Assembly: GCA_964536745.1 (NCBI GenBank)
Contig: CAZHYL010000006.1
Location: 1-54,551, forward strand
Direction: 5' to 3'
Source of the DNA: an uncultured Candidatus Saccharibacteria bacterium
GTDB taxonomy: Bacteria > Patescibacteriota > Doudnabacteria > UBA920
DNA length: 54,551 bases
Below, in pieces: positions 31,426 to 45,173 of this stretch (positions within the stretch are counted from its first letter, which is position 1; every line of letters starts with the position of its first letter). The notes beneath the pieces are model-generated. The model saw only the letters and a program-made list of their open reading frames with translations. It did no database searches and had not been told where the DNA came from. A program made the position numbers and the translations under genes.

Positions 31426-31548
31426 AGACCTCATAATTTGCTCATAGGCTTTGTTGTTTACTTCCGTACTCGCTTTGCGTACCATTAAGTACGCGTCGCT
31501 CGTACTCAGTAAACGCCTCGCCTCTAAACAAATTCTGAGGTCTTTTTT
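31426..31548. repeat. Long interrupted hairpin after secY, ending in a T-run (probable terminator role), with a partial second copy
   Basis: AGACCTCA/TGAGGTCT, AATTTG/CAAATT, GTTTACT/AGTAAAC, GCGTAC/GTACGC. 18-bp CTCGCCTCTAAACAAATT at 31517 and again at 31627. Confidence 0.75.
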
Positions 31549-31734
31549 AATAACAAAGTTTCTTTCATATTTTGCTTCTCGAACTTTTCTCAAAAATGAG
31601 CTTCTTTCTTTTGATGCTGAAAACGGCTCGCCTCTAAACAAATTTTTGAGGCTTTTTTATTTGATATTCCTGCAGTTCTTCAGAATTGCGCTGGGTAGTC
31701 AAAACCCACTCATTTATGGTATAATAATATCAAT

Positions 31735-32091
31735 ATGGATATACAAAAACGTAATAATGAAATTCTATCAAACCCAGATTTAAATGTTCCTGCTCAGGAA
31801 GAATTAGCTCAAACTTTGGAACAACAGCCTAGTACTGTAGTGCAAGCTGAAAATACTGCTGAAGCGACAGAACCGGTAGCTGCACAATCTATAGATTTGG
31901 CGCAGCCAGAATCGCTTACTATTGAACCAGATGTTTCAAGTAATTCTGATGCACAAGAACCAGAAAAGACCGATGAAACCTTAAATGATGCATTAGTGCA
32001 TCAAAGTGCTGAAACAAGTAGTGAAGCAAGTTTTTTAAATGATATTGCAACTGGAGAAACTCCTGTAGAGAAATTGAATTCTATTCTCTAG
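31735..32091 (+). CDS. Acidic low-complexity hypothetical protein
   Basis: Follows TGGTATAAT (31717-31725), Glu/Gln/Thr-rich. Confidence 0.6.
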   Translation: MDIQKRNNEILSNPDLNVPAQEELAQTLEQQPSTVVQAENTAEATEPVAAQSIDLAQPESLTIEPDVSSNSDAQEPEKTDETLNDALVHQSAETSSEASFLNDIATGETPVEKLNSIL

Positions 32092-32120
32092 AAATTAAAC
32101 CAAACTAAACAAAAACAAAA

Positions 32121-34679
32121 ATGCCCTTTGGGATGGATTTGGATACGATCTTAATAGCCAGCTCACTACTATTTGTTTTAATAGTAGTCTTTTTTGCATT
32201 TGCGGCTTATTACTTACATAGACACTGGTATTACACAAAAGTCATTCTGCCACGTACCAAAAACTGGGTTTTCTTGGAAATTCAGATGCCTAAAGATAAC
32301 AGTGAAGATAAAGAAAGATATCAACGAGATGAAGAGCGTAAAAATTTAATTGGAATCGCAGAACAACTTTTTACAACTCTTTCTGGAATAAGTAATGAAA
32401 AATGGTTTTGGCAACCAAAAGAGTATATCAGTTTTGAGATCGCATGTATCGACAAAAAGATTTCTTTTTACATAAATTGCCCTCGAAGTTTGCAGGAGCT
32501 TATTGAAAAACAAATCCAAGCTCAATATCCTCACGCTTTTATTGAAGAGATAAAAGGCTATAATCCATTTCCGAAGACAGGTGAGATGGAAGCGACAGAG
32601 TTGAAATTGAATAAGCAATACATGTTTCCATTCCGAACTTATAAGAGTATGGAAACTGATCCGCTTAACGCGTTAACTAACGCCATGTCTAAATTAGGTG
32701 ATGGAGAAGGCGCAGCGATTCAGATAATCCTATATCCTGCAGGTCAACATTGGCAGCACAAGCCACGTCATATGGCACTGGAAATTCAGCAAGGTAAAAA
32801 TCCTAATATTGTGGCCAAGAGCGCCACGGGTAGGTTCTTTAAAGAAGTTGGCGGTGGATTGAAGGATAGTGTGATAGGTGGAATGAAACCAACGCAAGAT
32901 CAGATGCAACAACGTACCGATTTATCTGGGCGATACTCGGCTATCAATTTAACTCCTATGCAGCAAGAGATGGTTAAGAGATTTGAAGAAAAGGCCAGTC
33001 GCCCAGGTTTTAATACTAACGTTAGAATAATTACTGCTTCTGAAACGCCAGGGAGTGCGAAAGTTAACATGCACAATTTGGTATCGTCGTTTTTGCAGTA
33101 TAATATGCCACCTTTTAATGGCTTTCATATAAAAAAGCGAGCCAAGAAGCGAATAGTTAAGGACTTCATTTTTAGAATTTACCGTCGTTATGGACGAAAA
33201 AGTATTTTAAATACCGAGGAATTGGCTAGTTTGTGGCATCTTCCAACTCCGTTCCTCGAGACTCCTAATATAAAATGGTTACTTTCTAAGAAAGCTCCAC
33301 CGCCAATTAACTTGCCTAGCGAGGGAATTTTACTTGGCCGGAATATTTACCGTGGTCAGGAAACCAAGATTTTAATGGCACGCGATGATCGCCGTAGGCA
33401 TATGTATATTTTGGGTCGCACCGGCGTTGGTAAAACAGAAATCATGAAATATATGTCTGTTCAGGACATAAAGAACGGTGACGGCTTGTGTATTATCGAT
33501 CCTCACGGTGATTTTATCGAGGATGTTTTACCACACATTCCAAAAGAACGAGCAGAAGACGTAATCTTGTTTGACCCGTTCGATACTGAAAGACCACTTG
33601 GTTTGAATATGTTAGAAGTCACTAGTGAAGGTCAAAAAGATTTTGCGGTTCAGGAAATGATTTCAATTTTTTATAAGTTGGTTACAGACCCTGCGATGCT
33701 CGGCCCAATGTTTGAACATAATATGCGCAATGCGATGTTAACTTTGATGGCAGATGAAGAACATCCAGGGACAATAGTTGAAATTCCAAGAATCTTTACT
33801 GATGTAGAATTCCAGAAGTATAAAATTTCTAAACTGAAAGATCCGGTTGTAAGGGCATTCTGGGAAAAAGAAATGGCAAAGACTTCAGATTTTCACAAGT
33901 CAGAAATGCTTGGTTACTTGGTGTCTAAAGTTGGTCGCTTCGTAGAAAACTCTATGATGAGAAATATTGTTGGTCAGCCAAAGAGTGCCTTTAATTTCCG
34001 CGAAATTATGGATGAAGGAAAGATTTTACTTGTGAACTTAGCTAAAGGTAAAGTTGGGGAAATGAATGCGAAGTTAATCGGATTAATTTTAGTGAGTAAG
34101 ATTCAAATGGCAGCGCTATCGCGTGCCGATACTCCAGAAAGTGAGCGAAAAGATTTTTATCTTTATGTTGATGAGTTTCAGAATTTTATTACCGATGCCT
34201 TTTCTTCAATTTTGAGTGAAGCTCGAAAATACAAGCTTAATTTAATTATTGGTCATCAGTTCTTGGCTCAATTACAGCAACAAGCAGGGGCTCAAGGTGC
34301 TGGGAGTAGTGATTTACGTGATGCTGTGTTCGGTAATGCAGGAAGTATGGTGACTTTCCGTATCGGTGTCGAAGACTCCGAAGTAATGGCTAAAGAATTT
34401 GCCCCAACCTTTAATGAGTTTGATTTGCTTAATGTAGATAGATTTAATGCTTTCGTAAAATTGATGATCAAAGGCACTGCTTCCAAACCTTTTAATATGG
34501 CAACCTATCCATTACCAAAACCTACCGAAGCAGAAAAGAAAGTTGGGGAAGCTATTAAACAGTTATCTAGGTTAAAATTTGGAAGAGCTAGGGCAGAGGT
34601 GGAAGAAGAAATTTTAGAGGCTAGTCAGGTAGCGGAGATGATGTCGGCTGGCCCAGCAGGTATCGAAAAAACTACTTAG
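32121..34679 (+). CDS. Type IV secretion coupling protein-like ATPase (VirD4/TraG/TrwB-HerA type) with N-terminal TM
   Basis: HMYILGRTGVGKT Walker A, LYVDEFQNF Walker B, SEARKYKLNLIIGHQ. Confidence 0.88.
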   Translation: MPFGMDLDTILIASSLLFVLIVVFFAFAAYYLHRHWYYTKVILPRTKNWVFLEIQMPKDNSEDKERYQRDEERKNLIGIAEQLFTTLSGISNEKWFWQPKEYISFEIACIDKKISFYINCPRSLQELIEKQIQAQYPHAFIEEIKGYNPFPKTGEMEATELKLNKQYMFPFRTYKSMETDPLNALTNAMSKLGDGEGAAIQIILYPAGQHWQHKPRHMALEIQQGKNPNIVAKSATGRFFKEVGGGLKDSVIGGMKPTQDQMQQRTDLSGRYSAINLTPMQQEMVKRFEEKASRPGFNTNVRIITASETPGSAKVNMHNLVSSFLQYNMPPFNGFHIKKRAKKRIVKDFIFRIYRRYGRKSILNTEELASLWHLPTPFLETPNIKWLLSKKAPPPINLPSEGILLGRNIYRGQETKILMARDDRRRHMYILGRTGVGKTEIMKYMSVQDIKNGDGLCIIDPHGDFIEDVLPHIPKERAEDVILFDPFDTERPLGLNMLEVTSEGQKDFAVQEMISIFYKLVTDPAMLGPMFEHNMRNAMLTLMADEEHPGTIVEIPRIFTDVEFQKYKISKLKDPVVRAFWEKEMAKTSDFHKSEMLGYLVSKVGRFVENSMMRNIVGQPKSAFNFREIMDEGKILLVNLAKGKVGEMNAKLIGLILVSKIQMAALSRADTPESERKDFYLYVDEFQNFITDAFSSILSEARKYKLNLIIGHQFLAQLQQQAGAQGAGSSDLRDAVFGNAGSMVTFRIGVEDSEVMAKEFAPTFNEFDLLNVDRFNAFVKLMIKGTASKPFNMATYPLPKPTEAEKKVGEAIKQLSRLKFGRARAEVEEEILEASQVAEMMSAGPAGIEKTT

Positions 34680-34726
34680 CGCGTGGTATAATAAATTTAA
34701 CTATTGAAATTACATCGGACACAAAA

Positions 34727-35032
34727 ATGAACGAAAATCAACCAGAGATAGAAGTATTTTTAGATGCTTTGCTCGCTGAAAAGGGCTTGGGAATGGCTCC
34801 AGATTCCGTGAGGCAACAATTAAAAGAAGATCTCATGCCAAGACTAGAGAAGTGGTTGGTGGCTGATATTTTTCAACATTTAACAGAACAGCAAGCTCAA
34901 GAGTTTGATGAATTTTTAAATTCAACTCCGAGTCAAGAACAAATTACCGAGAAGTTTAAAAAATTCATTCCCAATTACGAAGATGTGTATCGTGAATCAA
35001 TGTTGAGTTTTAAGCAAACTTATCTTTCTTAA
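34727..35032 (+). CDS. Small helical protein, DUF5663-like
   Basis: Acidic 101-aa protein (LTEQQAQEFDEFL...IPNYE). Family assignment is from memory. Confidence 0.55.
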   Translation: MNENQPEIEVFLDALLAEKGLGMAPDSVRQQLKEDLMPRLEKWLVADIFQHLTEQQAQEFDEFLNSTPSQEQITEKFKKFIPNYEDVYRESMLSFKQTYLS

Positions 35033-35034
35033 TT

Positions 35035-38000
35035 ATGGAAAAGCAACCAGATCAAACGCCTCCAACACCCCTTACTCCAGACAAAGGTTTCGAGGAAACA
35101 TTTAATAATCCAGAGGCGGCTAAGCAAGCTGGGGAGACTGCCGAAGCTCAGCAACTGCGTGAGCAAAAAGAGCAGGTTGAAAAACAGCGAGAAGAAATAA
35201 AGCAGGCTTTAGAGAAATCAATCGTTACTCTAAAGAAATTTTTAGAAGACAATAAAGAAAAATTGTCCGATTTAGAGCGTGCCAAGATTGAATGGGCAGT
35301 GAATTCAGCAGAAAATGCCAAAAAAGAATCTTTGGATAAGGACGATGATGAATATTTGGTAAAAATTCTAAAACCAGATGGTTCGGTTACAAAAGATGCT
35401 GAAGGGAATGAAATCCAACGGAAAGAGGGTGTGCCAGTAGACGGATTAAAAGAGGCATTAGATTTAGTTGCCGAAGTTCAGAAATCAAGTAAAGAACAAA
35501 AAGAATTAGCTAGCGATAAAATCAAGCAAGCTAATGAAGTTTTGGAATACCTAAAAACCCAAGATGGGCTTGGGATTACAAAACGAGAAAATTTACAAAA
35601 CTTTTTAGATAAAAATGCCCCAGAGTTAAAATCAGACTTAGAGAATTTAGTGACTGAATGGCTTAAGCATGACCAAGATCCTTCAGGTCAGCATCACAAT
35701 GAAGTAGCAGATTCTGGAGAGTATAATTTTAAATTTTATCTAGCACAGCTAGCCGAAGCTTCCCGGCAATTACAAAGCAAGTATCAAGAACAGGCAAACA
35801 CCCCTGAACTAACTCTTGCTTTAACACCTGAAGAACTTTCAAAAATAAGGGAAACCCTACAAAATTCTTCAAAGGATTATTTTGAGACCCATTATGCTAA
35901 AAAGCATGGGCTCGGTTTAACGAAGGAAGAATCTGATCAGCAACACTTGTTTACCGAACGCGAGGCTGGATTTATAGATGAAGACACGGATTTGAGATTG
36001 ATTTTAGAAAGCAAGTATCAAGATCAAATTCCGAAATATTCAGAGTTAAGTCGGCCAGAGCAAAATTATCAGTTAGCTATGTTGGCATTGCGTGACCGTG
36101 AAGTTTTGGAAATGCCGAAAGTTCCAGAAGCAGCCGCAGAACCAGAACCTAATCCAGAACTCATTCAACCTACCCAAGAGCAAACCCCTGAAGAGGTTAA
36201 AAAGATTTTGCTTATCAATATTGATGAGATCGCGAAAAGTATGGCATGGCGTAAAGCTGAGCATAAACTCAATGAGTTTTTCCGCAATTCTGGTTATCTA
36301 AAAAAGGTTTGGAAGTCTTTTTCAGAAGATTACTACCGCGTTAAATATTATCAGGAAGCTCTTAAGGAAATCACGACCAATAATTCTTTATTAGAAGCAA
36401 TTCGCGGACGCTTGGAAGGTCAGAAGGTAGCAAGTACTAATCCAGAGCTAAAAGATTATTTCCAATTATTAGATCAGATTATTGAACAGTACGAACAGAA
36501 CTTAGTTAATACAGGAGAAAAAGGTTCTGAGCTTGGTCAAACACCAGAGGTCGCAGATTTAGTCGCGAGGATGATTTCTGCTCACGCTAGTGGGGATATC
36601 CGTCAGTGGCAGGCTTTGGGGGCAGAGTATGCTGATCCTGGCATGGACGAACGTGCTCGAGTGGAATTGTTCGTAAGAAATGAAATCGCTCCAAAAATTT
36701 CAGGAGCTAATTGGGGTAATCAACCTGCAGGCAAAGTAGGAAGGTTTTCGAAATGGATGAATCGCGGAAAAGGTGAGCCAAGTGATAAATCGATTTACGC
36801 AAATAATTTGTGGAAGATTGCAGAGCAGTATAAGGCTGGTCAAGAAAAACAGCGTGCCGATTACATGAAGTGGACTGAAGGTGAGCTGACTCCAGAACAA
36901 AAAGCAGAGTTAGAAGCAAAACTTGCCGAGCACATGAAAGGTGTTCGCGAGTTAGATATTCAATTAGGAACCAAAGAACGAGATTTATATAACAACAAGC
37001 CAAAGGGTGTTTTGAAATTATATGAAAAAGTTTTAGATGCTGCCGAAGGTAAGTGGTATGGAAAGTTACTCGCAAACCCATTAACTATTGGTATAGGTAC
37101 GGCCTTAGCCTCAAGAGGAACTATGAGCGCTTTGCGTTACGGTGGAATCGCGGCAGGTAGCGTGGCAGGGGTTGCTTTATCCCCGTATATTCTTCCTATT
37201 ATTGCTGGTGGTTTAGCGGGTGGTGCATATCGTGCTTTTCGCACTAACAAAGATTTAAAATACGACTTAGCAAGAGAGCGTCGCAATGAGACCTTAGGTG
37301 GTGATAAATCTTTATTATTAAACGAGCGTGGTGGCTTACGGTATGGTGGTATGGGATATAACGAAGCCTTGGGTGCATTAAATAGATTTCAGGGACGCGA
37401 TTTTGCTTCTTTATCTGATGATGAAAAGCAAGGTATTGCAGAACTTAAAGCCATGCGCGATTTTGAAAAACAAACTGGTAATAAAGTAGATTTGTTTTTT
37501 GCGGATGATGAATCTGGCTCAAAAACTGGCAGTGTTATTGGTTTACGTAACCAATTAGACTTAGCATTGCGTCAGTGGGAATCGCAGGTGGATCAAGCTG
37601 CTGTTAGTAGTGCGATGAATCGACTGAAAGGAGAGGTGGATAAAACTGATAAGGCAGAAAAATCTTTCCGGCACCGTAGGGCAGCGGTTTCTGGTACAGT
37701 AGGTGCTGTGGTTGGTATGGGGGCAGGGTTAGCAGCTCAAGAAGGAATCTACATTCTTGGCCGTAATTTAGGCTTGATGGAGACTAATCGTAGCAGTGCT
37801 CTAGAATATATTGCAGACAAATACACTGGAAGTGCAGAGCATAGTTGGAACTCCTTTGTGGGTAGGGCTAATAATTTAACTGTTGAAGGTGATCCGTATG
37901 TGTTTGTAGATCCTGCGACAGGAACAAAATATACTGCAGAGCAAGCTTTGGCTCTAAAGAGTTCTAGGCCAAAATTCAATATTGAAGATTTAAAAAGAGA

Positions 38001-39585
38001 AGACTGGCATGGTGTGGGCAGGAATTTTCATGGCAAGGAGTTGCAGCAGTGGCATATTTTGGACAAGAAAAGCGGTAATGTTTCGATTGATGTTCATAAT
38101 ATGATGAACAATGTTAACAAGAATATTGACCTAAATAATACAATCAATTGGGATAAAACTACAGATCCAAAGATGAATGAATTACTTTCAGAGATGCGTT
38201 CAGCAAAACAAGCTGGGAATTTGCACGAGCATATGCAAGTTCGAATTTTCCCAACCGTCGAAATGTACAATACTGGTAATGGCATTAATGTTGGTCATAT
38301 CGATGAAACTGGTCGCCTAGTTTTAGATGATGAGATGCGCAATTATGTTTTTGACGGCAATGGCAAACAGATGGCGCGAGCTATTGAAGTTGGTTATTTA
38401 GATGATCGTGGTGGTTATCATACCTTAAATACCGCTGTTGGTAGTGGGGAAGTAGGACCTCCTCCAATAGATGATGTTATTTTAGAAGAGCTAAAACCAG
38501 CTAATTATGATTTCTTCACAGCCTTGATACCTCCTTATAGACCAGTCCATGGTAGGGAAGGGGATAAAGAAAAAGGTAAAGATGAAGACAAGAAACCATC
38601 AGGTGATTCTAAGAATAAAAAAGAAGCAAGAATAATCAATCAGAAAGATTATGTAAAGGAAAAGGTAATTGGCTATTTTGATAAAGATTCTAAGCTAGCA
38701 AAGTCAGAAGATCTTACAAAGCAAATTGATAGTCTTTCCGAAAAAGATAAAGAAAAGCTCTCCGTTAACCTTGAACATATTAGAATTGATTCCGATAGCG
38801 AGCACTTGCTAAAAGATCCTGAGTTTGTCGGCAAGTTAATTGCTTTTACAAAAGATCTCGACCCATGGGTCATAAAGGGAGGCTATACAGTTGTGTTTAT
38901 GGATAAGAATAAAGATTTGCAAGTCAGTGGAAAAATTTTACAAGTAAATGCTAAGGCAGAGCTAATTAATTGGAGATTTGGTATTGCTGCTGCTAAAAGG
39001 ATTTTAGAGAAAAAGGGTGAGAAGCCTTTGGATTCAGAAAAAACTACAGATGAACCTAAAGAAACAGGCGAAGTGAAAGAGGAAGATAAAGATGATGAAA
39101 ATCGTCCAAAATGGGCTAAGAATAAGTTGGCTTGGAAACAGTTATTTGTTTGGGATAGGAATCATCAGAATGGGTTATTAGCTGATATTAATGACAATCA
39201 ACTTAAAGAAAAAATTGAAAAATCTTTCACTGAAGTAGAGAAGTTTAAAGATTTGGATGAATTAGTAGTGAAGTCAATCTTTGCAGATTTAGTTAAAAAA
39301 CGATCCAAAGCAGTGGATACTAAGCAGACTCGGATGTATGATCTTATTATTGATAGCATCATAAAGCTACCTGGTTTAACCACTGACAAGAGTAAGCAAT
39401 TAGAAAAGTATTACGATGAAGTTAGACGTAATATGAATAAGGGCGGAGTGAAGAAGAATAAAGGTGAAAAGAATAGCGGAGACACTAAAGATTCAGGTAA
39501 TGATGCTGATAAGAGAATTAAGGTAAATAATCGCGCCCAAAGAGATAAGAAGAAAAAAGAAAGTTTAGCTAAGGGGCGCAAATAA
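35035..39585 (+). CDS. 1516-aa hypothetical protein: coiled coils, two Gly/Ala-rich hydrophobic blocks, charged C-terminus
   Basis: Uninterrupted ORF starting 2 nt after the upstream stop. No recognised domain. Confidence 0.8.
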   Translation: MEKQPDQTPPTPLTPDKGFEETFNNPEAAKQAGETAEAQQLREQKEQVEKQREEIKQALEKSIVTLKKFLEDNKEKLSDLERAKIEWAVNSAENAKKESLDKDDDEYLVKILKPDGSVTKDAEGNEIQRKEGVPVDGLKEALDLVAEVQKSSKEQKELASDKIKQANEVLEYLKTQDGLGITKRENLQNFLDKNAPELKSDLENLVTEWLKHDQDPSGQHHNEVADSGEYNFKFYLAQLAEASRQLQSKYQEQANTPELTLALTPEELSKIRETLQNSSKDYFETHYAKKHGLGLTKEESDQQHLFTEREAGFIDEDTDLRLILESKYQDQIPKYSELSRPEQNYQLAMLALRDREVLEMPKVPEAAAEPEPNPELIQPTQEQTPEEVKKILLINIDEIAKSMAWRKAEHKLNEFFRNSGYLKKVWKSFSEDYYRVKYYQEALKEITTNNSLLEAIRGRLEGQKVASTNPELKDYFQLLDQIIEQYEQNLVNTGEKGSELGQTPEVADLVARMISAHASGDIRQWQALGAEYADPGMDERARVELFVRNEIAPKISGANWGNQPAGKVGRFSKWMNRGKGEPSDKSIYANNLWKIAEQYKAGQEKQRADYMKWTEGELTPEQKAELEAKLAEHMKGVRELDIQLGTKERDLYNNKPKGVLKLYEKVLDAAEGKWYGKLLANPLTIGIGTALASRGTMSALRYGGIAAGSVAGVALSPYILPIIAGGLAGGAYRAFRTNKDLKYDLARERRNETLGGDKSLLLNERGGLRYGGMGYNEALGALNRFQGRDFASLSDDEKQGIAELKAMRDFEKQTGNKVDLFFADDESGSKTGSVIGLRNQLDLALRQWESQVDQAAVSSAMNRLKGEVDKTDKAEKSFRHRRAAVSGTVGAVVGMGAGLAAQEGIYILGRNLGLMETNRSSALEYIADKYTGSAEHSWNSFVGRANNLTVEGDPYVFVDPATGTKYTAEQALALKSSRPKFNIEDLKREDWHGVGRNFHGKELQQWHILDKKSGNVSIDVHNMMNNVNKNIDLNNTINWDKTTDPKMNELLSEMRSAKQAGNLHEHMQVRIFPTVEMYNTGNGINVGHIDETGRLVLDDEMRNYVFDGNGKQMARAIEVGYLDDRGGYHTLNTAVGSGEVGPPPIDDVILEELKPANYDFFTALIPPYRPVHGREGDKEKGKDEDKKPSGDSKNKKEARIINQKDYVKEKVIGYFDKDSKLAKSEDLTKQIDSLSEKDKEKLSVNLEHIRIDSDSEHLLKDPEFVGKLIAFTKDLDPWVIKGGYTVVFMDKNKDLQVSGKILQVNAKAELINWRFGIAAAKRILEKKGEKPLDSEKTTDEPKETGEVKEEDKDDENRPKWAKNKLAWKQLFVWDRNHQNGLLADINDNQLKEKIEKSFTEVEKFKDLDELVVKSIFADLVKKRSKAVDTKQTRMYDLIIDSIIKLPGLTTDKSKQLEKYYDEVRRNMNKGGVKKNKGEKNSGDTKDSGNDADKRIKVNNRAQRDKKKKESLAKGRK

Positions 39586-39586
39586 A

Positions 39587-39620
39587 AAAACAGACCAGAG
39601 TTTTTAGGCTCTGGTCTTGT
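39587..39620. terminator. Bidirectional terminator
   Basis: AGACCAGAG-TTTTTAGG-CTCTGGTCT between convergent genes. Confidence 0.7.
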
Positions 39621-39656
39621 TAATTGTCGACCCAATTGTCGACAGGTTATGAAAAT

Positions 39657-40364
39657 TTACGAATTGTTCTGAGTGCCGCCACCGGTCTGCGGGTTGTTGG
39701 CAGGCGGGTTTGCGGGCGGGGTCCGACGAACAACCGGAGTATTCGGGTTTTCGATACCCAAATGTTGGCGGAGATCTGCAAAGAAGTTGTTCTGGGCAGC
39801 GCGATGTGTTGCGTTACGCCGATTTTCTTCTTCCATCTCTTCTTGGATGTTACGTGCTCTGCCGTTGAGCGTCCATCCCTGTGCTCTGCCGAACAGGCTC
39901 AGGATGACAAGGATGACAAGGAGAGCGATTACCCACCAAAGCCGATCAGCAATGGTCGCTACCAAACTACCGATACCCCCGAGGAAATCTTTCGGAGTTC
40001 CGTCGGGATTTTTGAACGATGCTTGTAGGATATTACGAATTTCCGTCAGAAGACCGTTGGTCTTCTTGACTTCTTCCGTGTTTTCCTTCACTGCCGCCGT
40101 GTTGTCTTTCACTGCGGCTGTGGTGTTTTTCTCTTCGTTCGCTATGTTGTCGAGCCTCGACGTGATACACGTCGGGCAATTGTTGGCCGGAGCCGATTTC
40201 TTCGGAGCGGTCTTCTTCGGAGCGGTCTTCTTCGGCGTCGGGCAGCTCGGAGTCGGCGCGGCTTTCACCACACCTTTCTCGTCCTGCGCCGAAATCGACG
40301 CGAACGAACCTAAACCCAAAACCAAAGCGATGACAAAGACGATCGAAAATGCAAAATTTTTCAT
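39657..40364 (-). CDS. Orphan exported/membrane protein with PKKTA and heptad repeats, GC-rich
   Basis: Signal peptide, 15-nt tandem repeat at 40198-40235, NTAAVK(D/E) heptads, one TM, AAGGAGG SD. Confidence 0.75.
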   Translation of the reverse strand: MKNFAFSIVFVIALVLGLGSFASISAQDEKGVVKAAPTPSCPTPKKTAPKKTAPKKSAPANNCPTCITSRLDNIANEEKNTTAAVKDNTAAVKENTEEVKKTNGLLTEIRNILQASFKNPDGTPKDFLGGIGSLVATIADRLWWVIALLVILVILSLFGRAQGWTLNGRARNIQEEMEEENRRNATHRAAQNNFFADLRQHLGIENPNTPVVRRTPPANPPANNPQTGGGTQNNS

Positions 40365-40550
40365 AACTGTATTTGGCCCTCCTTAGGCCCTGGACTGTTT
40401 AGGTCCAGTTTGATTGAATTTGTTGTTGATTTTTGTTGATTTTTACGGGCTCGGGCGGCCCAACGATTTAGGCACGCGCCTTTTAACCCGATTTCTGCAA
40501 ACTTACGAATAATCCCAAGTTCGCAAAAATCGAGTCAAAATTGACCCTAT

Positions 40551-40579
40551 AATATAGCATAGAATCTATTTTTTGTCAA
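40551..40579 (-). promoter_or_regulatory. Promoter of the 39657 orphan
   Basis: Minus strand TTGACA-17nt-TATATT with TG extension. Confidence 0.7.
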
Positions 40580-40633
40580 GGCTGGCTGACAAAAGCCTAA
40601 AAATGCATATAAATATGGTAAAATTAAGTAAAT

Positions 40634-41878
40634 ATGGAAAATAAAAAAGAAGGCTTATCTGATACTAGCCTTCAATCAGAAACAAAATTAACCCCTGCTC
40701 AAGAAATAGCTAAGCTAAACCAGGAAACTGTTCAGAATACCATGAATCGCAGGGAATTCTTTGCCAAGTTTATTGGTAAAGAGTCTAAGGAGCAAACCGA
40801 CCAAGAATTATCAAAGGTTCGTGGGGATCTTCAAGAGCTTAATCAAGATTCAGAAAAACCAGAGGAATTTCCTTCGGATGAAATAAGTTCTGATGAGCCG
40901 GCTAAAAAAACCAAGTGGCTTTTTACTCGTCGAAATATGATTGGTGCTTTGTTGGTTGGAGTAATCGCGTTTAAGTGGGATTTCGTGAGAAGATTTTTGC
41001 ATCAATGGGAAAGAAAAGAATATCCAAAAGGGCTTGCTGGTGTTATTGAAGGAATTAAAGATGAGTATCCTCATGTGGACCAAGAAGCAGATCCAGAAAT
41101 GTGGAGTAGAGAAATTGAAAATGCCTTTCCAGCTTCAGGTTTACCAAGAACTACAGAAAATTTAGGAACAGTCCTATCGCTAATTACAGCAGAAAGTGGT
41201 TTTCGCAGTGTCCCAAGAGCATATGACCAATTTGACGTAGATAATTATTTTGATGAAGAAGGTTTGCCTTTGGTGGATGCACCCTCAACTGGTGGTCCAA
41301 TGGAATTAGCTTATCAGCATGTTGTAGAATCCGAGCAAGTAACCTTGAAAGAAGCTATGGAGTTAATGAGTCGTGTTCCTGAAGGGTTGACTCATAGTTT
41401 TCGTCATTTGAACACAGTTATTCAAGCTTATCAAGAGGTTAGCGATTTGGAATTACGGCTAAAGTGTATCTTTGCTGACTGGAATAGTGGCACATATAGT
41501 AGCAGGAATGCTGGGGTGCAGCGAGTTGTTTCGGAATTGAGCGGGCAGAAATTAAATTATGATGGGTTGATTGGTGAAAAAACCAAGAGCGCTGTGAGGG
41601 ATCTGTTAGCGAAAAATAACATCACAGTAGATACTTTAGAGGAAGATCTTAAGTGGAATAGGGCAGAGAGGTTTAAGAGTTCTAATACATGGAAAGCTCT
41701 AGAGACATTATATAATGGGCCAATAACTCCTGTAGTAGCAGATACACCAGTACTTGGTTTGTACGGCTGGACAAAAGAAGTTACTACAGGGATTAGTAGT
41801 TCTGGAGAGTTTGCAGATGCTAGGTATGAAGAGTATCAGAAAATCTCAAAGTTGATGGAAAAGTTTGGAGTTAACTAA
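40634..41878 (+). CDS. DUF1615 (YaiW-like) domain protein, N-terminally membrane-anchored
   Basis: LITAESGF, TGGPMEL, FADWNSGTYSSRNAGVQ, LNYDGLIG match DUF1615 motifs as I recall them. Confidence 0.72.
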   Translation: MENKKEGLSDTSLQSETKLTPAQEIAKLNQETVQNTMNRREFFAKFIGKESKEQTDQELSKVRGDLQELNQDSEKPEEFPSDEISSDEPAKKTKWLFTRRNMIGALLVGVIAFKWDFVRRFLHQWERKEYPKGLAGVIEGIKDEYPHVDQEADPEMWSREIENAFPASGLPRTTENLGTVLSLITAESGFRSVPRAYDQFDVDNYFDEEGLPLVDAPSTGGPMELAYQHVVESEQVTLKEAMELMSRVPEGLTHSFRHLNTVIQAYQEVSDLELRLKCIFADWNSGTYSSRNAGVQRVVSELSGQKLNYDGLIGEKTKSAVRDLLAKNNITVDTLEEDLKWNRAERFKSSNTWKALETLYNGPITPVVADTPVLGLYGWTKEVTTGISSSGEFADARYEEYQKISKLMEKFGVN

Positions 41879-41882
41879 AATT

Positions 41883-41915
41883 AAAACGGGCTAGTTGAGT
41901 ACTCAACTGCCCGTT
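41883..41915. terminator. Bidirectional terminator
   Basis: AACGGGC-(T)-AGTTGAGTACTCAACT-GCCCGTT, overlapping the stop of the 41903 gene. Confidence 0.75.
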
Positions 41916-42214
41916 CTTCGTTTCCATAACCTCATTGTTTGGTATCCGGCTTCCTTGGCGAGCCAAGGAGCTGTCGTTATCAAACCCATGGTTAAGAGAT
42001 TCATTGCAATCCTTTCGATCTCTGGCGCTTCGTAGGCACGAAACGGCATCACGAGCTTGGTGGTGATTACCAAAGTGGTAATCGTTCCCAATGCCAGGTA
42101 GAGCAGATAAAGCACTGCCCAGAGATACGCTAATGGCGATCCGACTTTGTTGACGAAGCCAATAACGAAGGAAAACATCAAGAATAATAGAATTACTGTG
42201 TATTCTTTAGTCAT
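41903..42214 (-). CDS. Small 2-3 TM orphan membrane protein
   Basis: AAGGAGG SD, own promoter, basic C-terminus. Confidence 0.65.
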   Translation of the reverse strand: MTKEYTVILLFLMFSFVIGFVNKVGSPLAYLWAVLYLLYLALGTITTLVITTKLVMPFRAYEAPEIERIAMNLLTMGLITTAPWLAKEAGYQTMRLWKRRTGS

Positions 42215-42260
42215 TTTGGCCTCCTTGCCATATTCTTTGTTAGATTTTTGTATTCGCTAA

Positions 42261-42326
42261 ATTCTACCAGTTTTAGGTAGTTTTGTCAAGGTGTATATTG
42301 ACAAAACCCTTTAAATATGCTATATT
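42261..42326. promoter_or_regulatory. Back-to-back divergent promoters
   Basis: Minus TTGACA-17-TAGAAT (42261-42289) and plus TTGACA-17-TATATT (42298-42326), both with TG extension. Confidence 0.8.
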
Positions 42327-42407
42327 ACTTCGTTATCATAATATTTTGGTAATCCCCGAAAGGGGCCACATTGTCAATAAAAAAGAGGAATTTTAGAGGA
42401 AAAAAGG

Positions 42408-44348
42408 ATGAAAGAATTTCGTCAGATAGGCGACGGCACAAACGGTGCGTCGCGGTTTGAGCTGCTTTGGGCGAAGGTATTGTTTGCCTTCACCTTCTAT
42501 GTGGCTCCCTGGCTTTTTACAGCCAGTGCGGTCTTGGTTTTTATCTTGCTACCAATGGTGGTATGGATTTCCGCTGGAATCTCTACTTTGGTGTGGATGA
42601 TTCTGGGAGTCTATACGCTCCTGTTCGGTGCAAGTTATCTATTCAGTTACTTGTACCGTCACCCCGACCATAAAGTATTTGCTGGTCGCCAGTGGCTTCA
42701 TACGCCGGTGGTGGCTGTGCTTAATTTCTTGATGGGATGGATCCGTAAGGGTCACAATTTACTTTTTCATGAGGCGAAGCGAGTTAGTATTTTTCTCGTG
42801 CGAAAGAAGAAGGAATTGCTAATTTGGTCTGCCAAGAAGTTTTTGGCTGCACCATTAAAGTCAAGAATTTTTGTCACAGTTGGTGTCGCGATGATTTTAG
42901 TGCCTGCTACGATGTATGTTTTGGTAGGAACTTACGTGGAAGTGAAAAATAAGCTTCCGTACGGCGCCAACCGGATGCAATTGACCGATGCTGAGGTGGA
43001 AGAGCGAACTCAAATTGCTATCCAAGCTATGGATTGGGCAGTGTGGGGTCAATCTGATATCGACGCAAAGATTGCTTGCATGGACAAGTACAGGGATCTG
43101 ATTTACCGGTCTGCTAAGCAGAACGGCATTAGCCAAACAAAGCTCGAAGCTCTGATTTTTGTTGAAAGCGGTTGCGATGCAAAAGCTTACAATAGTGATA
43201 GCGGAGCAGCTGGTCTTGCCCAGATTCTGGTTAGCACTGGGCGAGAGCTTGGGCTGATAGATTCAGCTTACAAGATTCAGCCTCCGGCTAAAGCTGATCC
43301 GAAGAAAGATCGTCGCTACGATCCGAACTTCGCGATTCCTGCGGCTGCGAAATTCATCGCATCGCGCCAGAAGTATTGGGGCGATGAGATCTTGGCGTTC
43401 GAAGAGTACCATTTGGGACAAGGAAACTTCCGCGTCCTGATTAGTACTTATCTCGACGAAACCAATCCCACTTGGCGCGAAAAGTATCCAAAGACTTTTT
43501 CGCAAACCGCTGATCCCGATCGGGTTATTCCGAGGGCTATGTCGGACTATAAGCTGACCTACTTCAGCATCTTCTTCCGCAGAACTCCCAAGCACACGCC
43601 CAAAACGAGTGCATTTCTGCTCCAGAAAAGCGACTTCACCACGACATACATCTTCTCGATATTGTCGGCGGAAAAAGGTTTCGCGCTGAAGGCTTCGAAT
43701 CCCACTGAGTTTGCGAAGTTCCTTGAAAGTCAGAGGGAGCCAAGCGGGGACGTTGCTACTAATCGTTTTCGAACTGCTTATGCAGACAAGGAAGCGACCT
43801 ATAATACGGTTGCAGATTTGGAGAAGGCGATTTCGCGTGGCGAGATTGTGCCCGTACCTCTCAAAGGTATGGGGTACTCGCTTCGTATTGAGGGTAACAA
43901 CCCTATCGGTGAATGTGACCTCTCTAATCAGAAGAGCTATTTGTATACTTGGAAGTCCACTGCTGGACTTTTGATGTATCTGACGGCTCGGATGAAGGAG
44001 TTGGGTGCTCAGGACGTTGAGATTACTGGCTTGGTTCGGACCAATAAGAAATGGTATGAGCCGGTCAATGGTCAAAAGCCTTGCTTGACGAATACGCAAC
44101 CGAGAACTCACGTGATCGGCGCGGCATTCGATATAGGGATTAACATCAATGGCAAACGGATGAGTAAGAAAACCGAAGATATCTTGAGGTTTATGCTTGC
44201 CGATATGCTTATTGGTGGCCAGCTTAGCTGGATTCCCGAAGGCTATGCATTCCACGTTGTGGTTATGCCTGATGCTGCGCAAAATTACGAGCAGGTTTAC
44301 GACTCTGTGATGGGGGGAGCTTCGCCGCTCCCAACTGCTACAGAGTAA
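42408..44348 (+). CDS. Membrane-anchored lytic transglycosylase (SLT) fused to an M15-like Zn-peptidase (DUF5715-like) domain
   Basis: LIFVESG, GAAGLAQI, YDPNFAIPAAAKFI, YHLG. C-terminal GLVRT, HVIGAAFD (HxxxxxxD), FHV. Confidence 0.8.
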   Translation: MKEFRQIGDGTNGASRFELLWAKVLFAFTFYVAPWLFTASAVLVFILLPMVVWISAGISTLVWMILGVYTLLFGASYLFSYLYRHPDHKVFAGRQWLHTPVVAVLNFLMGWIRKGHNLLFHEAKRVSIFLVRKKKELLIWSAKKFLAAPLKSRIFVTVGVAMILVPATMYVLVGTYVEVKNKLPYGANRMQLTDAEVEERTQIAIQAMDWAVWGQSDIDAKIACMDKYRDLIYRSAKQNGISQTKLEALIFVESGCDAKAYNSDSGAAGLAQILVSTGRELGLIDSAYKIQPPAKADPKKDRRYDPNFAIPAAAKFIASRQKYWGDEILAFEEYHLGQGNFRVLISTYLDETNPTWREKYPKTFSQTADPDRVIPRAMSDYKLTYFSIFFRRTPKHTPKTSAFLLQKSDFTTTYIFSILSAEKGFALKASNPTEFAKFLESQREPSGDVATNRFRTAYADKEATYNTVADLEKAISRGEIVPVPLKGMGYSLRIEGNNPIGECDLSNQKSYLYTWKSTAGLLMYLTARMKELGAQDVEITGLVRTNKKWYEPVNGQKPCLTNTQPRTHVIGAAFDIGININGKRMSKKTEDILRFMLADMLIGGQLSWIPEGYAFHVVVMPDAAQNYEQVYDSVMGGASPLPTATE

Positions 44349-44377
44349 GTGCATCTCTTCTTTCATCCTCACCATTT

Positions 44378-44417
44378 AGAAGCGTGTTCGACATTTTGTT
44401 GGACGCGCTTCTTTTTT
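44378..44417 (+). terminator. Terminator after the SLT gene
   Basis: AGAAGCGTGTTCGAC...GTTGGACGCGCTTCT-TTTTT. Confidence 0.7.
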
Positions 44418-44534
44418 ATGTAAAAATATTTGCTTTATTTATAAGGTGTGTTATAATTTTAGCGATAGATTCTGTTTGAAATCCAAACAAAATTAAAAAT
44501 AAAAATAACTAAAACAAAAACAAGTAATAATTTC

Positions 44535-45173
44535 ATGGATAAAAATGCAAATTTGGCTTTGATTGTGCAAATGATTGAGGCTGCCGAGAAAAATATACAA
44601 TCTGCCAAGCATTTACTTAGGGAAATGGCTGGTGGCACTATACCAAAATCTTCGACTAACTTTGCCGAAAAAGCTAGTTCTCTTGGTATTGGCGATGGTG
44701 GGAAAATTGTAGAAGGGGTGTTTGATGGCCAGAATATGATAGGTTCGGATAAAAAACAGTACCCTGTACCAGCAAACTATGCTTCTAAATCTAAACTTAT
44801 TGAAGGAGATGTCTTGAAACTGACAATCGGAGATGATGGCTCGTTCATTTATAAGCAGATTGGACCAATTGATAGACGAAAAGTTATTGGTGTATTAATG
44901 CAAGATGAAAACGGTGATTATAAAGTTATTGCAGAAGGTAAAACATATCGAGTACTGCTTGCCTCGCTAACTTATTTTAAAGCCGAAGCCGGAGATGAGG
45001 TTACCATCGTGGTCCCACAAGAAGGGGAAGCACAATGGGCAGCGGTTGAAAATGTAATCAAGCATGCTTCTGGAATGGCTGTAGATAATCCAGGTTCTCC
45101 TTCCAGTTCCTATGACGAGGATATGGAAGCAGATAGCTTGGCTCAACCAGAAGTAGAAAACGAAGAATTTTAA
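44535..45173 (+). CDS. Hypothetical protein (N-terminal coiled coil, beta-barrel-like core, acidic tail)
   Basis: EGVFDGQNMIG, YPVPANYASKSKLIEGD, YKQIGP. I recall this as conserved in CPR, unverified. Confidence 0.75.
   Translation: MDKNANLALIVQMIEAAEKNIQSAKHLLREMAGGTIPKSSTNFAEKASSLGIGDGGKIVEGVFDGQNMIGSDKKQYPVPANYASKSKLIEGDVLKLTIGDDGSFIYKQIGPIDRRKVIGVLMQDENGDYKVIAEGKTYRVLLASLTYFKAEAGDEVTIVVPQEGEAQWAAVENVIKHASGMAVDNPGSPSSSYDEDMEADSLAQPEVENEEF

Follow-up and report, generated by a model that had tools for sequence, protein, structure and literature searches.

A coupling-protein-type ATPase in a conserved neighbourhood between secY and dnaX adjoins a variable slot of putative envelope genes in Doudnabacteria-like Patescibacteria

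Introduction

Genes related to T4SS are prime suspects in the search for how Patescibacteria obtain material from their hosts. The locus described here lies behind secY in an uncultured Candidatus Saccharibacteria bacterium (Doudnabacteria in the GTDB lineage; contig CAZHYL010000006.1), and the whole stretch of 54,551 nucleotides that was analysed is referred to as the window. An initial annotation, made from the letters of the sequence, had read eight genes in this locus as a candidate module for breaching a host wall, built around a VirD4/TraG-like ATPase and two cell-wall enzymes. The question raised by this locus is whether its genes constitute one conserved machine.

Results

Layout of the locus

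All eight genes claimed for the interval were confirmed as ORFs within 31735-44348, six of them on the plus strand and two (39657-40364 and 41903-42214) on the minus strand. Together with two genes further downstream, the features are as follows, with related loci designated by L numbers.

31735..32091, plus strand: 118-aa acidic protein, pI 4.05, probably disordered, no family match
32121..34679, plus strand: 852-aa membrane-anchored P-loop ATPase (Pfam profiles, motifs)
34727..35032, plus strand: 101-aa DUF5663 (PF18908) protein, pI 4.5 (47.1 bits, cutoff 23.7)
35035..39585, plus strand: 1516-aa giant membrane protein, hydrophobic segments at ~681-699, 703-728 and 882-909
39657..40364, minus strand: 235-aa exported or membrane repeat protein, signal-like N-terminus, TM segment 131-166
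40634..41878, plus strand: 414-aa DUF1615 (PF07759) protein (74 bits, cutoff 25; E 1.6e-20)
41903..42214, minus strand: 103-aa small multi-TM protein, 46-48% identical to its L081 and L087 counterparts
42408..44348, plus strand: 646-aa membrane-anchored two-domain wall hydrolase candidate, SLT646 (profiles, motifs)
44535..45173, plus strand: 212-aa protein, outside the interval of the initial annotation
45195..45872, plus strand: GtrA-family membrane protein (E 8.6e-16), part of the conserved backbone 3' of the slot

The labels originally given to the ATPase (VirD4/TraG-like), the DUF5663 and DUF1615 proteins and the SLT enzyme all hold, with curated profiles scoring above cutoff (TraG-D_C itself falling just under). 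The eight-gene cluster is not co-directional and comprises at least five transcription units spread over both strands. Near-consensus promoter-like sites were located upstream of the minus-strand genes and of the SLT gene, the count of such sites across the region being no higher than expected from shuffling. The candidate transcription signals are the following.

31696..31725, plus strand: promoter-like site, TAGTCA-18-TATAAT with TG, a consensus match only, just 5' of the acidic ORF
34663-34692: possible internal promoter with TGGTATAAT, near the start of the DUF5663 gene
39592..39617: bidirectional intrinsic-terminator-like hairpin between the convergent giant and repeat-protein genes (11 pairs on the plus strand, 9 on the minus strand, a T-rich tail after each)
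40579-40551, minus strand: promoter-like site of the repeat-protein gene
42261..42326: back-to-back promoter-like sites of the small TM gene (minus strand) and the SLT gene (plus strand), both with 11/12 matches to consensus and a TG
42289-42261, minus strand: promoter-like site of the small TM gene
44378..44412, plus strand: strong terminator-like hairpin of 16 pairs with a T-tract, 3' of the SLT gene

A conserved backbone around the ATPase

Across 80 species-representative loci, the backbone reads rplO-secY-...-acidic ORF-ATPase-(small helical ORFs)-212-aa protein-GtrA-dnaX. The ATPase occupies the same chromosomal position in all 80 species with 57-88% identity, its GC3 (0.35) is typical of the genome, and it shares at least 71% identity with more than 120 database clusters. 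Within 200 nt upstream of the ATPase, 66 loci carry a plus-strand ORF with a median length of 128 aa and a median pI of 4.65. Its sequence is barely conserved (the L081 counterpart of the acidic protein shares 75% identity over 64 aa), yet the acidic ORF is a positionally conserved upstream partner of the ATPase. No other neighbour is co-conserved with the ATPase as strongly as the 212-aa protein, which follows directly after the ATPase slot in 53 of the 80 loci and contains a stretch of ~50 residues that is invariant across 17 species; no match to it was found in Pfam, NCBIfam, PHROG or PDB. Besides GtrA, HtrA and RuvX are found among the neighbours.

A variable slot behind the ATPase gene

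The slot separating the ATPase from the 212-aa gene has a median length of 781 bp (53 loci) and measures at most 200 bp in six of them, and the window's slot of 9,855 bp is the largest that is fully bounded. Besides the window, its content was recovered in four loci only: L081 and L087, with the full gene set in the same order, L002, with part of it, and L082, where the contig is truncated. More specifically, the DUF1615 and small TM proteins are confined to L081 and L087, while the repeat protein and the SLT enzyme also occur in L002. The 80 species-level loci yielded no homologue of the DUF1615 or the small TM protein, and among these the SLT646 homologue was limited to L002, plus a weak match in L041. 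The acidic ORF, ATPase, 212-aa gene, gtrA and dnaX are kept across the relatives, the wall-related genes only in the nearest ones. In relatives with ~79% ATPase identity the slot is filled by other families (F50 with F45, polytopic F40/F91, F62/F63, or F64 followed by DUF5663), and these slot genes of sister lineages are putative envelope genes unrelated to those of the window.

The DUF5663 gene starts 47 nt 3' of the ATPase gene and ends 2 nt 5' of the giant gene. The giant protein can be divided into a charged, helix-rich N-terminal part of ~680 aa, a conserved region (930-1170) and a variable Lys-rich tail, and the positive-inside rule would place its N-terminus inside and its C-terminus outside. 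It matched nothing in Pfam or PDB, its homologues form seven clusters among 5.8 billion proteins, and a literature search found no mention of the DUF5663 family. A DUF5663 gene paired with a TM protein of at least 800 aa was observed in 12 related loci plus L081, L082, L083, L087 and L088. This pair lies 5' of the ATPase in the distant loci L061, L062, L070, L073, L074 (where a contig end truncates the big protein), L075 and L080, and 3' of it in L013, L014 and L025. In L083, the pair is found away from the ATPase and adjoins ftsZ, and in L068 a giant homologue is located 5' of the ATPase with no DUF5663 gene detected. Most loci have no such pair in the ATPase neighbourhood, and the three families of big proteins found with DUF5663 show no detectable homology to one another. 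Of the island genes, only the DUF5663/giant pair is found again next to the ATPase in distant Doudnabacteria, where the gene orders differ.

Divergence and composition

Protein identity between the window and L081 amounts to 93% for the ATPase and secY and 88% for the 212-aa protein, and to 61% for the giant, 56% for the DUF5663, 54% for the DUF1615, 46% for the small TM, 45% for the SLT and 36% for the repeat protein. Relative to L087, dN/dS equals 0.015 for the ATPase, 0.006 for the 212-aa protein, 0.15 for SLT646 and 0.38 for the repeat protein; the DUF1615 and small TM genes are saturated at synonymous sites, with flanking genes at a dS of ~0.9. The island genes change much faster than their flanks, and the wall-related ones do so at a multiple of the ATPase's rate. 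Nucleotide identity along L087 is a mosaic, with ~66% in the DUF1615 gene and 91% in the stretch from the ATPase to the giant. GC3 reaches 0.60 in the repeat-protein gene, 0.54 in the small TM gene and 0.53 in the SLT gene, against a window median of 0.31, so that these three island genes look foreign, and this appearance is limited to the right half of the island. Such heterogeneous composition and divergence point to separate histories of the genes.

The ATPase resembles T4SS coupling proteins

The ATPase scored above cutoff with TrwB_AAD_bind (41.7 bits, cutoff 20.5) and T4SS-DNA_transf (26.7 bits, cutoff 20.1) and just below it with TraG-D_C (21.9 bits, cutoff 22), and NCBIfam TraD models yielded local matches only, far under their cutoffs. 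The DUF87/HerA central domain matched as well (E 1e-7), and matches to FtsK-type profiles and VirB4 sequence models were marginal (VirB4_plasma, E 0.009). Its Walker A (GRTGVGKT, residues 432-439) and Walker B (in FYLYVDEFQNF, 679-689) motifs are invariant in 17 ATPase sequences. A single N-terminal hydrophobic helix (residues 3-35) precedes ~370 aa that precomputed annotation assigns to PF26449 (DUF8128), and the two-TM anchor that usually directly precedes the motor of coupling proteins is absent. As to the all-alpha domain inserted in the motor of coupling proteins, the structural model places helices at residues 503-615 between Walker A and Walker B, with pLDDT there mostly below 50. The top fold matches of this low-confidence model were exclusively T4SS ATPases, TrwK/VirB4 followed by Cag-beta/VirD4, and the nine best Foldseek hits were all TrwK/VirB4 (~800 columns, E 3e-7), at a TM-score of ~0.2 and a model pLDDT of 51. 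Because of this full-length structural alignment to VirB4, the exact class of the ATPase is ambiguous. Neither the scanned ORFs of the window nor the 80 related loci (within ~10 kb) revealed relaxase, VirB4, PrgI/VirB6 or TrbL homologues, in line with the original remark that no relaxase or VirB4 is visible. The profile data support an ATPase of the T4SS coupling-protein type, one that has no T4SS cluster in its surroundings.

One firmly identified cell-wall enzyme

SLT646 has N-terminal TM segments at ~17-83 and 145-180, followed by an SLT (PF01464) domain at residues 232-342 (45 bits, cutoff 21.3; E 9.6e-12), of which the catalytic-type E253-S254 and the AAGLAQI motif are conserved in three orthologues. 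It also matches PHROG lytic-protein families (down to E 1e-12). Its C-terminal domain (~470-640) carries the motif R544/H568/D575/E611/H616, and it belongs to a real family, of which 99 representatives were found. Among 41 aligned homologues R544, H568 and D575 are invariant, and S541, G571, A573, E611 and H616 are kept in at least 90%. The resulting pattern R...HxxGxAxD...E..H is of the LAS/M15 type, i.e. a metal-binding H-x(6)-D...H with an upstream Arg, and its motifs line up with those of E. coli MepK (SGYRS, HTKGQAMD and VH). Statistical similarity to M15 was nevertheless lacking, since no Pfam match emerged even at E 10, a PDB profile search found none, hhalign against E. coli MepK returned a probability of 0.2%, and a structure model with a pLDDT of 42 was too poor for a fold comparison. 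Of the proposed "SLT+M15-like" hydrolase, the SLT half is therefore borne out by score and motifs, and the M15 half by motifs but not by similarity. Pfam DUF5715 (PF18979) was found in 35 of the 41 aligned homologues (best E 9.5e-13), whereas SLT646 of the window itself did not match this profile. Both SLT and DUF5715 domains are present in 22 of the 41, and such proteins occur widely on their own.

For the DUF1615 protein, which has a weakly hydrophobic segment at ~95-121, a cell-wall role is only hinted at by sub-threshold matches to PG_binding_3 (16.8 bits, cutoff 24.6) and to a PHROG endolysin family (E 1.7e-4), and a literature search found no function attached to this family. Because the M15 assignment rests on motifs and the DUF1615 hints are all sub-threshold, one cell-wall enzyme (SLT) is firmly identified, and not two peptidoglycan-active enzymes as first proposed. 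The repeat protein contains three KKTAP and two NTAAVK repeats; its minus-strand reading frame is uninterrupted in L002, L081 and L087 and is an annotated gene in public records.

Discussion

The interval probably combines two layers, an old core and a younger, variable part, and is not one conserved machine. The small acidic protein and the 852-aa coupling-protein-type ATPase form a core unit of Doudnabacteria-like Patescibacteria, and the slot behind them has expanded to 9.9 kb in this lineage, with DUF5663 and the giant directly behind the ATPase and with four separately transcribed, rapidly diverging putative envelope genes (repeat, DUF1615, small TM and SLT-DUF5715). We infer a transport role, in which the ATPase might act as a hexameric, membrane-associated motor handing DNA or protein to a membrane channel. 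This channel could belong to a T4SS whose genes lie elsewhere, or consist of membrane partners specific to the lineage. As a partner or client in contact with the ATPase, the DUF5663/giant pair would be the best candidate, and the other island genes could encode proteins of the surface and of wall remodelling that are exposed to strong pressure to diversify or turn over. Among these, the SLT-peptidase might play a VirB1-like role by opening peptidoglycan locally in a presumed target wall. One could go further and picture the DUF8128 coupling ATPase as a minimal VirB4-independent translocon with acidic, 212-aa and interchangeable giant and DUF5663 chaperone-like partners, moving DNA, nucleotides or effectors between epibiont and host and using the slot as a swap site for host-specific surface parts, but we consider this picture improbable.

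That all eight genes would form one host-interaction module, with ATPase-powered export or import via the giant and wall enzymes breaching the host wall, seems unlikely to us. It draws strength from a bona fide T4SS of Embleya, in which an ATPase homologue has a large TrbL-like membrane protein and an SLT+NlpC/P60 hydrolase for neighbours, from the parallel between the SLT646 architecture and the VirB1-like hydrolases of Gram-positive T4SS (PMC12102498), from L081 and L087, which retain all the genes in the same order, and from the fast evolution of the surface genes, which fits host or phage interaction. However, co-occurrence, whose absence the initial annotation itself had named as a refutation, fails beyond the closest relatives (largely so for six of the eight genes among the 80 relatives), and sister lineages carry unrelated genes in the same slot. 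The number of transcription units on both strands, the uneven composition and divergence, the sub-threshold hints at a wall role of DUF1615 and the wide occurrence of SLT-DUF5715 proteins on their own all argue in the same direction, and synteny suggests that the ATPase functions normally in relatives without the island. A conserved host-breaching module is not supported, even though the analogy in the initial annotation has a precedent.

A housekeeping role, in which the ATPase would be an FtsK-like DNA translocase and its neighbours would serve the cell's own envelope growth and septation, is distinctly improbable. Its core position between secY and dnaX in every relative, the extreme purifying selection, the GtrA, HtrA and RuvX neighbours, the ftsZ-adjoining DUF5663/giant pair of L083 and the phage homologues that are annotated as helicase/translocase in replication and partition regions would all fit, but the profile matches speak for VirD4/TraD rather than FtsK, the nearest homologue with an informative context is encoded as a T4CP within a conjugative cluster, and divisome parts usually diverge more slowly than the giant and the island genes do. 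It is very improbable indeed that the interval represents a decayed ICE or prophage remnant inserted after the spc operon, with the ATPase as a leftover transfer or packaging motor. Members of the ATPase family are common both among plasmids (236 records) and among Bacillus phages (phrog_5156), and three island genes have atypical GC3, but the ATPase itself is fixed in position in 80 species with the dN/dS and GC3 values given above, and patchy presence is limited to the insert that separates it from the 212-aa gene, with the foreign look confined to the right half. Moreover, profile searches matched no integrase/recombinase or relaxase family, no boundary repeats of at least 10 nt were found around the interval, and no tRNA flanks it, the sole one found being located at 1075-1148.

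The locus shows one orphan coupling-protein family as a strictly conserved core gene with two previously unnoticed fixed partners (the acidic ORF and the 212-aa protein), adjoining a hot spot of rapid envelope-gene exchange next to which a two-gene cassette of DUF5663 and a giant membrane protein repeatedly lands. These observations turn a vague module idea into specific, testable pairings, and caution against assigning the wall hydrolases nearby to a conserved machine.

Comparison with known systems

Solitary coupling-protein-like ATPases were already said to be known in CPR, and indeed Quinonero-Coronel et al. 2025 (PMC12102498) give 5,713 T4CP homologues in Patescibacteria, only 148 of which lie near virB4. 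The same paper raises possible exaptation of these orphans and describes the Southlakia T4CP homologue as dispensable for epibiotic growth. The situation of the window's ATPase (VirD4-like, widespread, rarely near virB4) is that of these orphans, and the secY-ATPase-212-aa-gtrA synteny, DUF8128, the variable slot and the DUF5663/giant pairing were not found described in the text consulted.

With VirD4, TraD, TrwB and Cag-beta the ATPase shares a membrane-anchored P-loop motor, invariant Walker A and B motifs and T4CP Pfam matches above cutoff, but it differs from T4CPs in having one TM helix and an N-terminal domain of ~370 aa in place of a two-TM anchor. Its likeness to VirB4/TrwK consists of its size (~800-850 aa), two-domain layout and the full-length TrwK fold matches of the low-confidence model (E 3e-7), and a homologue on a C. 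botulinum plasmid follows a TrbC/VirB2 pilin gene, as virB4 does; its sequence profiles, however, favour VirD4/TraD. The phrog_5156 ATPases of Bacillus and Geobacillus phages (phage G gp156, SP-10, CP-51, TP-84 and 0105phi7-2 gp33) resemble it over the full length including the N-terminal domain (E 6e-97 to profile, 21-24% identity), and in phage 0105phi7-2 small ORFs directly precede the ATPase gene, as in the window. Unlike in the window, these genes lie in early or replication-partition regions of the phages with no envelope or secretion genes nearby, indicating that the ATPase family also works outside T4SS contexts.

SLT646, in turn, resembles VirB1-like hydrolases of Gram-positive T4SS, which combine SLT with CHAP or NlpC-P60 (PMC12102498), in its membrane anchor, its N-terminal SLT domain with E-S motif and its second, peptidase-like C-terminal domain. 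It departs from them in that the second domain is of the DUF5715 type with an LAS/M15-like metal motif, and not a cysteine peptidase, and in that the gene is not beside a T4SS channel gene but forms its own fast-evolving transcription unit with atypical GC3.

Among T4CPs, the closest comparison is with plasmid NZ_CP108778 of Embleya sp. NBC_00896, on which the ATPase homologue WP_331738717.1 (26% identity over residues 78-798, a stretch that takes in the DUF8128 region; E 5e-69) holds the T4CP position in a complete monoderm T4SS. The cluster runs in the order TrbL-like, PrgI, VirB4-like ATPase, homologue, Replic_Relax and SLT+NlpC/P60, and its separate VirB4-like ATPase matches the window's ATPase at E 5e-5, compared with 5e-69 for the homologue in the T4CP slot. 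The window's ATPase differs in belonging to the chromosomal core, and in none of 80 relatives does a gene for VirB4, PrgI, VirB6 or a relaxase lie within 10 kb of it. Given this Embleya cluster, the pairing of this type of ATPase with an SLT-peptidase hydrolase has a real precedent.

Gene content of the locus

The initial annotation had proposed eight ORFs between 31735 and 44348, all of which were recovered. Together with the 212-aa gene that lies outside this interval, they are:

31735–32091 (+), acidic protein, 118 aa
32121–34679 (+), ATPase, 852 aa
34727–35032 (+), DUF5663 protein
35035–39585 (+), giant membrane protein, 1516 aa
39657–40364 (–), repeat protein, 235 aa
40634–41878 (+), DUF1615 protein
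41903–42214 (–), small TM protein, 103 aa
42408–44348 (+), SLT enzyme (SLT646), 646 aa
44535–45173 (+), 212-aa protein

The reading of the second ORF as a VirD4/TraG-like ATPase was upheld by Pfam, with TrwB_AAD_bind and T4SS-DNA_transf above the cutoff and TraG-D_C just below it, and its first ~400 residues correspond to PF26449 (DUF8128) in the precomputed annotation of identical or near-identical database proteins. Pfam likewise bore out DUF5663, DUF1615 and the SLT domain of the 646-aa protein. No curated family matched the acidic protein (pI 4.05), the giant protein or the small TM protein, and curated family searches with the repeat protein returned sub-threshold local matches only. PDB sequence searches with SLT646, the DUF1615 protein, the 212-aa protein, the giant protein and its alignment, and a DUF5715-type domain profile yielded nothing significant, and an Rfam scan of the whole window gave no match. 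A defence system is not indicated at the locus, PADLOC having returned only a local mad8/HerA-type P-loop match.

The repeat protein and small TM protein genes lie on the minus strand, and the rest of the window is almost wholly co-oriented, with ParB first, followed by the str/S10/spc ribosomal operons as far as secY. The plus-strand ORF 39673–40386, whose Arg/Cys/Ser-rich product has an antisense-like look, was rejected because the minus-strand ORF has signal/TM features and promoter- and terminator-like sites of its own, and stays open in three relatives. ORF 31451–31783 (110 aa, TTG start) was taken as spurious because of its overlap with the acidic ORF and the lack of homologues in the related loci.

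A conserved backbone around the ATPase

For the comparison of relatives, one genome per species was scanned, 512 were returned, and the best 80 of these 512 (57–88% ATPase identity) were taken with 10-kb flanks, after which a backbone was derived from tblastn, phmmer/jackhmmer and all-against-all clustering of the ORFs in these 80 loci. This backbone starts with rplO, secY, zero to four genes, an acidic ORF of ~128 aa and the ATPase, and continues with up to three small helical ORFs (of families F29 and F19, which hhalign shows to be related), the 212-aa protein, GtrA, dnaX, a 539-aa exported protein, HtrA and RuvX. The acidic ORF was found upstream of the ATPase in 66 of the 80 loci, with a median pI of 4.65 and an almost unconserved sequence.

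The ATPase belongs to the core genes and not to the island. Over its full 852 residues, more than 120 database clusters share at least 71% identity with it, and about half of the alignment columns, Walker A and Walker B included, are invariant among 17 sequences. Its strongest partner is the 212-aa protein, which directly follows the slot (the stretch between the ATPase and 212-aa genes) in 53 of the 80 loci and contains a stretch of ~50 residues that is invariant in 17 species (EGVFDGQNMIG..KQYPVPANYASKSKL.EGDVLKLTI..DGSFIYKQIGP). With a dN/dS of 0.006 against the close strain L087, its conservation is at the level of ribosomal proteins, and it matched nothing in Pfam, NCBIfam, PHROG or PDB.

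Metagenome contigs of other organisms in the same samples matched the window only over ~35 nt (34152–34187, the Walker B segment), which shows that this coding stretch is conserved at the nucleotide level across species. One assembled contig (run X28) joins window position 34183 to 44712, skipping 10,528 nt and leading from the Walker B region of the ATPase to the point where the conserved part of the 212-aa gene begins; its shorter side measures 27 nt, and it is probably either an assembly chimera formed via conserved words or derived from a relative that lacks the island. Many relatives (L016–L060) carry F23, a ~121-aa protein with a zincin-like HEIGHH motif, two genes 5′ of the ATPase, and HAD-like and CYTH-like small enzymes occur between secY and the ATPase in many relatives as well; the window's clade has neither F23 nor these enzymes.

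A variable slot between the ATPase and the 212-aa gene

Beyond the ATPase, the interval delimited in the initial annotation consists of sequence inserted into a variable slot. Measured from the ATPase stop codon to the 212-aa gene, this slot has a median length of 781 bp, and in six species it does not exceed 200 bp. At 9,855 bp, the slot of the window is the largest with both ends present; about ten relatives from its clade have slots that reach or exceed roughly 10 kb. The island content of the window is limited to its nearest relatives: L081 has all of the genes in the same order, L087 shares the content, L002 has it without DUF1615 and the small TM gene, and L082 has it on a contig that ends early. 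At ~79% ATPase identity, the slot of relatives holds other, mostly unannotatable envelope-type proteins. Among these are a charged protein of ~380 aa paired with one of ~95 aa, polytopic membrane proteins of 510–530 aa, proteins with a multi-TM N-terminus and a beta-rich C-terminus, secreted proteins, and a TM protein of ~950 aa with DUF5663 behind it; Pfam gave nothing above threshold for ten representative slot proteins of other lineages. No integrase, tRNA or boundary repeat was found to mark the insert.

The two layers of the locus are set apart by their evolutionary behaviour.

Protein identity to L081, and dN/dS against L087
secY: 93%; not computed
ATPase: 93%; 0.015
212-aa protein: 88%; 0.006
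GtrA: 76%; 0.034
Giant protein: 61%; 0.054
DUF5663: 56%; 0.059
DUF1615: 54%; 0.10 (dS ~3, saturated)
Small TM protein: 46%; saturated
SLT enzyme: 45%; 0.15
Repeat protein: 36%; 0.38

Against a dS of ~0.9 in the flanking genes, the saturation at DUF1615 and the small TM gene suggests that older alleles were swapped in at these positions. The nucleotide alignment to L087 is a mosaic: identity is 91% over the stretch from the ATPase to the giant gene and ~66% across most of DUF1615, and the repeat protein gene, the small TM gene and the SLT gene's N-terminal region contain patches that could not be aligned. GC3 reaches 0.60 in the repeat protein gene, 0.54 in the small TM gene and 0.53 in the SLT gene (window median 0.31), and is genome-typical in DUF1615 and the giant gene. 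The giant gene itself (window 35035–39585 versus L087 1335–5885) has a dS of 0.39, compared with 0.85–1.1 in the ATPase, DUF5663, 212-aa and GtrA genes flanking it, which suggests either a more recent exchange between the window and L087 lineages or an unusual synonymous constraint.

A proposed cassette of DUF5663 and the giant protein

DUF5663 occurs in 12 of the 80 loci, where a protein of ~800 aa or longer, with TM segments rich in Gly/Ala, is its direct neighbour or lies no more than one or two genes away (in L074, this big partner is cut by the contig end). The pair is located immediately downstream of the ATPase in the window's clade, immediately upstream of it in a distant clade (58–60% ATPase identity), and 7–10 kb downstream in L013, L014 and L025; in L083 it adjoins ftsZ, without the ATPase. 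The big partners belong to three families (giant, F42 and F64) among which hhalign shows similarity at the level of TM segments only, and the family of the giant protein comprises seven clusters among 5.8 billion proteins. DUF5663 was unrelated, by hhalign, to F19, F29 and F45, the small helical families 3′ of the ATPase in other lineages. We read DUF5663 and the giant protein as a self-contained two-gene cassette with a clear, non-exclusive tendency to sit by the ATPase. Judging from the positive-inside rule, the giant protein would start with a charged, helical cytoplasmic part of ~680 aa, cross the membrane three times and end in an external part of ~600 aa, which comprises a conserved core (930–1170) and a variable Lys-rich tail.

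Transcription signals

Promoter- and terminator-like sites represent consensus matches only, and the total of promoter-like sites was not above shuffle expectation, with the best-scoring sites lying in intergenic gaps. A promoter-like site precedes the acidic ORF, and no terminator was found in the gaps between the acidic ORF and the ATPase (29 nt), the ATPase and DUF5663 (47 nt), and DUF5663 and the giant gene (2 nt); a possible internal TGGTATAAT lies 5′ of DUF5663. The convergent giant and repeat-protein genes are separated by a bidirectional hairpin, back-to-back near-consensus promoter-like sites lie 5′ of the small TM and SLT genes, and a strong terminator-like site follows the SLT gene. 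From this layout, the interval is predicted to comprise at least five transcription units, and a possible single operon can be limited to the acidic ORF, ATPase, DUF5663 and giant genes. RNA-labelled wastewater runs gave sparse 1–3x contigs across all genes and, as DNA carry-over is possible, hold no operon information.

The putative wall enzymes

At its N-terminus SLT646 carries TM segments, and E253-S254 and GLAQI are conserved in its SLT domain. A full HMMER scan linked its C-terminal domain to 99 representative proteins, and among 41 aligned homologues of this domain 35 have Pfam DUF5715 and 22 have SLT too. With both domains in 22 of 41 homologues, the SLT + DUF5715-type enzyme is a widespread, stand-alone architecture. 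Residues R544, H568 and D575 are invariant and E611 and H616 conserved, aligning with the SGYR, HxxGxAxD and H motifs of E. coli MepK in a comparison that was not significant. The earlier "M15-like" label thus finds agreement in the motifs but not in the significance of the comparison, and appears reasonable but unproven. The SLT646 structure model (pLDDT 42, three sequences) was too poor for domain-level conclusions. The papers searched attach no function to the DUF1615 family, and hints of peptidoglycan binding were sub-threshold.

Organism and surroundings of the locus

In the databases, ATPase homologues appear under the names Candidatus Doudnabacteria or Patescibacteria group, and some SPIRE-type MAGs bear an automatic "Saccharibacteria" label. 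Near-identical sequence is present in wastewater and activated-sludge metagenomes. With ParB at the window start (26–1069), nearly all genes on one strand and a steadily climbing cumulative GC skew, the window probably lies on one replichore, near the origin; a published survey places T4SS genes near dnaA in some Patescibacteria.

Between fusA and tuf, an insertion of three family-less ORFs at 15953–17592 (143 aa, +; 218 aa, –, with signal/TM features; 93 aa, –) breaks the usual str operon order. GC3 values of 0.51–0.70 (window median 0.31) were found for the minus-strand genes at 10284–11300, 16431–17087, 19587–20216, 39657–40364 and 41903–42214 and for the SLT gene (42408–44348). These minus-strand genes are five of the window's six long (at least 100 aa) minus-strand genes, the sixth (11574–12341) having a GC3 of 0.37. 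The high-GC3 genes are mutually non-homologous, several have signal or TM features, and they have the look of small envelope genes that were acquired separately and now sit wedged among housekeeping operons.

Interpretation and relation to known systems

The initial annotation had suggested that the eight genes form a module for breaching a host wall, a proposal that is not backed by co-occurrence, transcription structure or evolutionary history. The best-supported interpretation is one of two layers, namely a conserved orphan T4SS-type motor unit and an adjoining site of envelope-gene swapping. The module idea survives in a reduced form, in which DUF5663 and the giant membrane protein may be working partners of the ATPase, with a VirB1-like hydrolase as a plausible accessory in the window's lineage.

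Sequence profiles group the motor with VirD4/TraD/TrwB. Its structure model (pLDDT 51, 17-sequence alignment) was too poor for domain-level conclusions, and a fold search with it, weak in its result, returned T4SS ATPases as all of the best matches, with TrwK/VirB4 first for the full length and Cag-beta/VirD4 after TrwK/VirB4 for the C-terminal half. An Embleya plasmid carries a complete monoderm T4SS (TrbL-like, PrgI, Mom-like, VirB4-like ATPase, the homologue, Replic_Relax and SLT+NlpC/P60), in which the window ATPase matches the protein in the T4CP slot with an E-value of 5e-69 versus 5e-5 for the VirB4-like ATPase of the same cluster. The ATPase family can therefore be classed as a motor of T4SS type that comes nearest to coupling proteins. 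Its N-terminus, a single TM + DUF8128, is atypical, so that it does not fully qualify as a T4CP in the strict sense. The other Embleya T4SS parts had no detectable counterpart in the 80 CPR loci.

Outside Patescibacteria, full-length homologues including the DUF8128 part occur in Bacillus/Geobacillus phages (phrog_5156, E 6e-97), where they sit in early or replication-partition regions of large and temperate phages without an assigned function (JN638751 (gp156), NC_019487, KF554508, KY565347, OQ317942). Such full-length homologues also occur on plasmids, 236 in all, from Streptomyces, Staphylococcus, Bacillus, Clostridium, haloarchaea and Sulfolobus, and on C. botulinum pCLK a TrbC/VirB2 pilin gene lies directly 5′ of the homologue.

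Within Patescibacteria, two published studies (PMC12102498, PMC11665869) describe thousands of T4CP homologues away from virB4, leave their role open, and report the T4CP homologue of Southlakia to be dispensable. New in relation to these are the fixed synteny and partners of the DUF8128-type family, the variable slot beside the ATPase, the DUF5663/giant cassette, and the link of the ATPase family to a complete actinobacterial T4SS.
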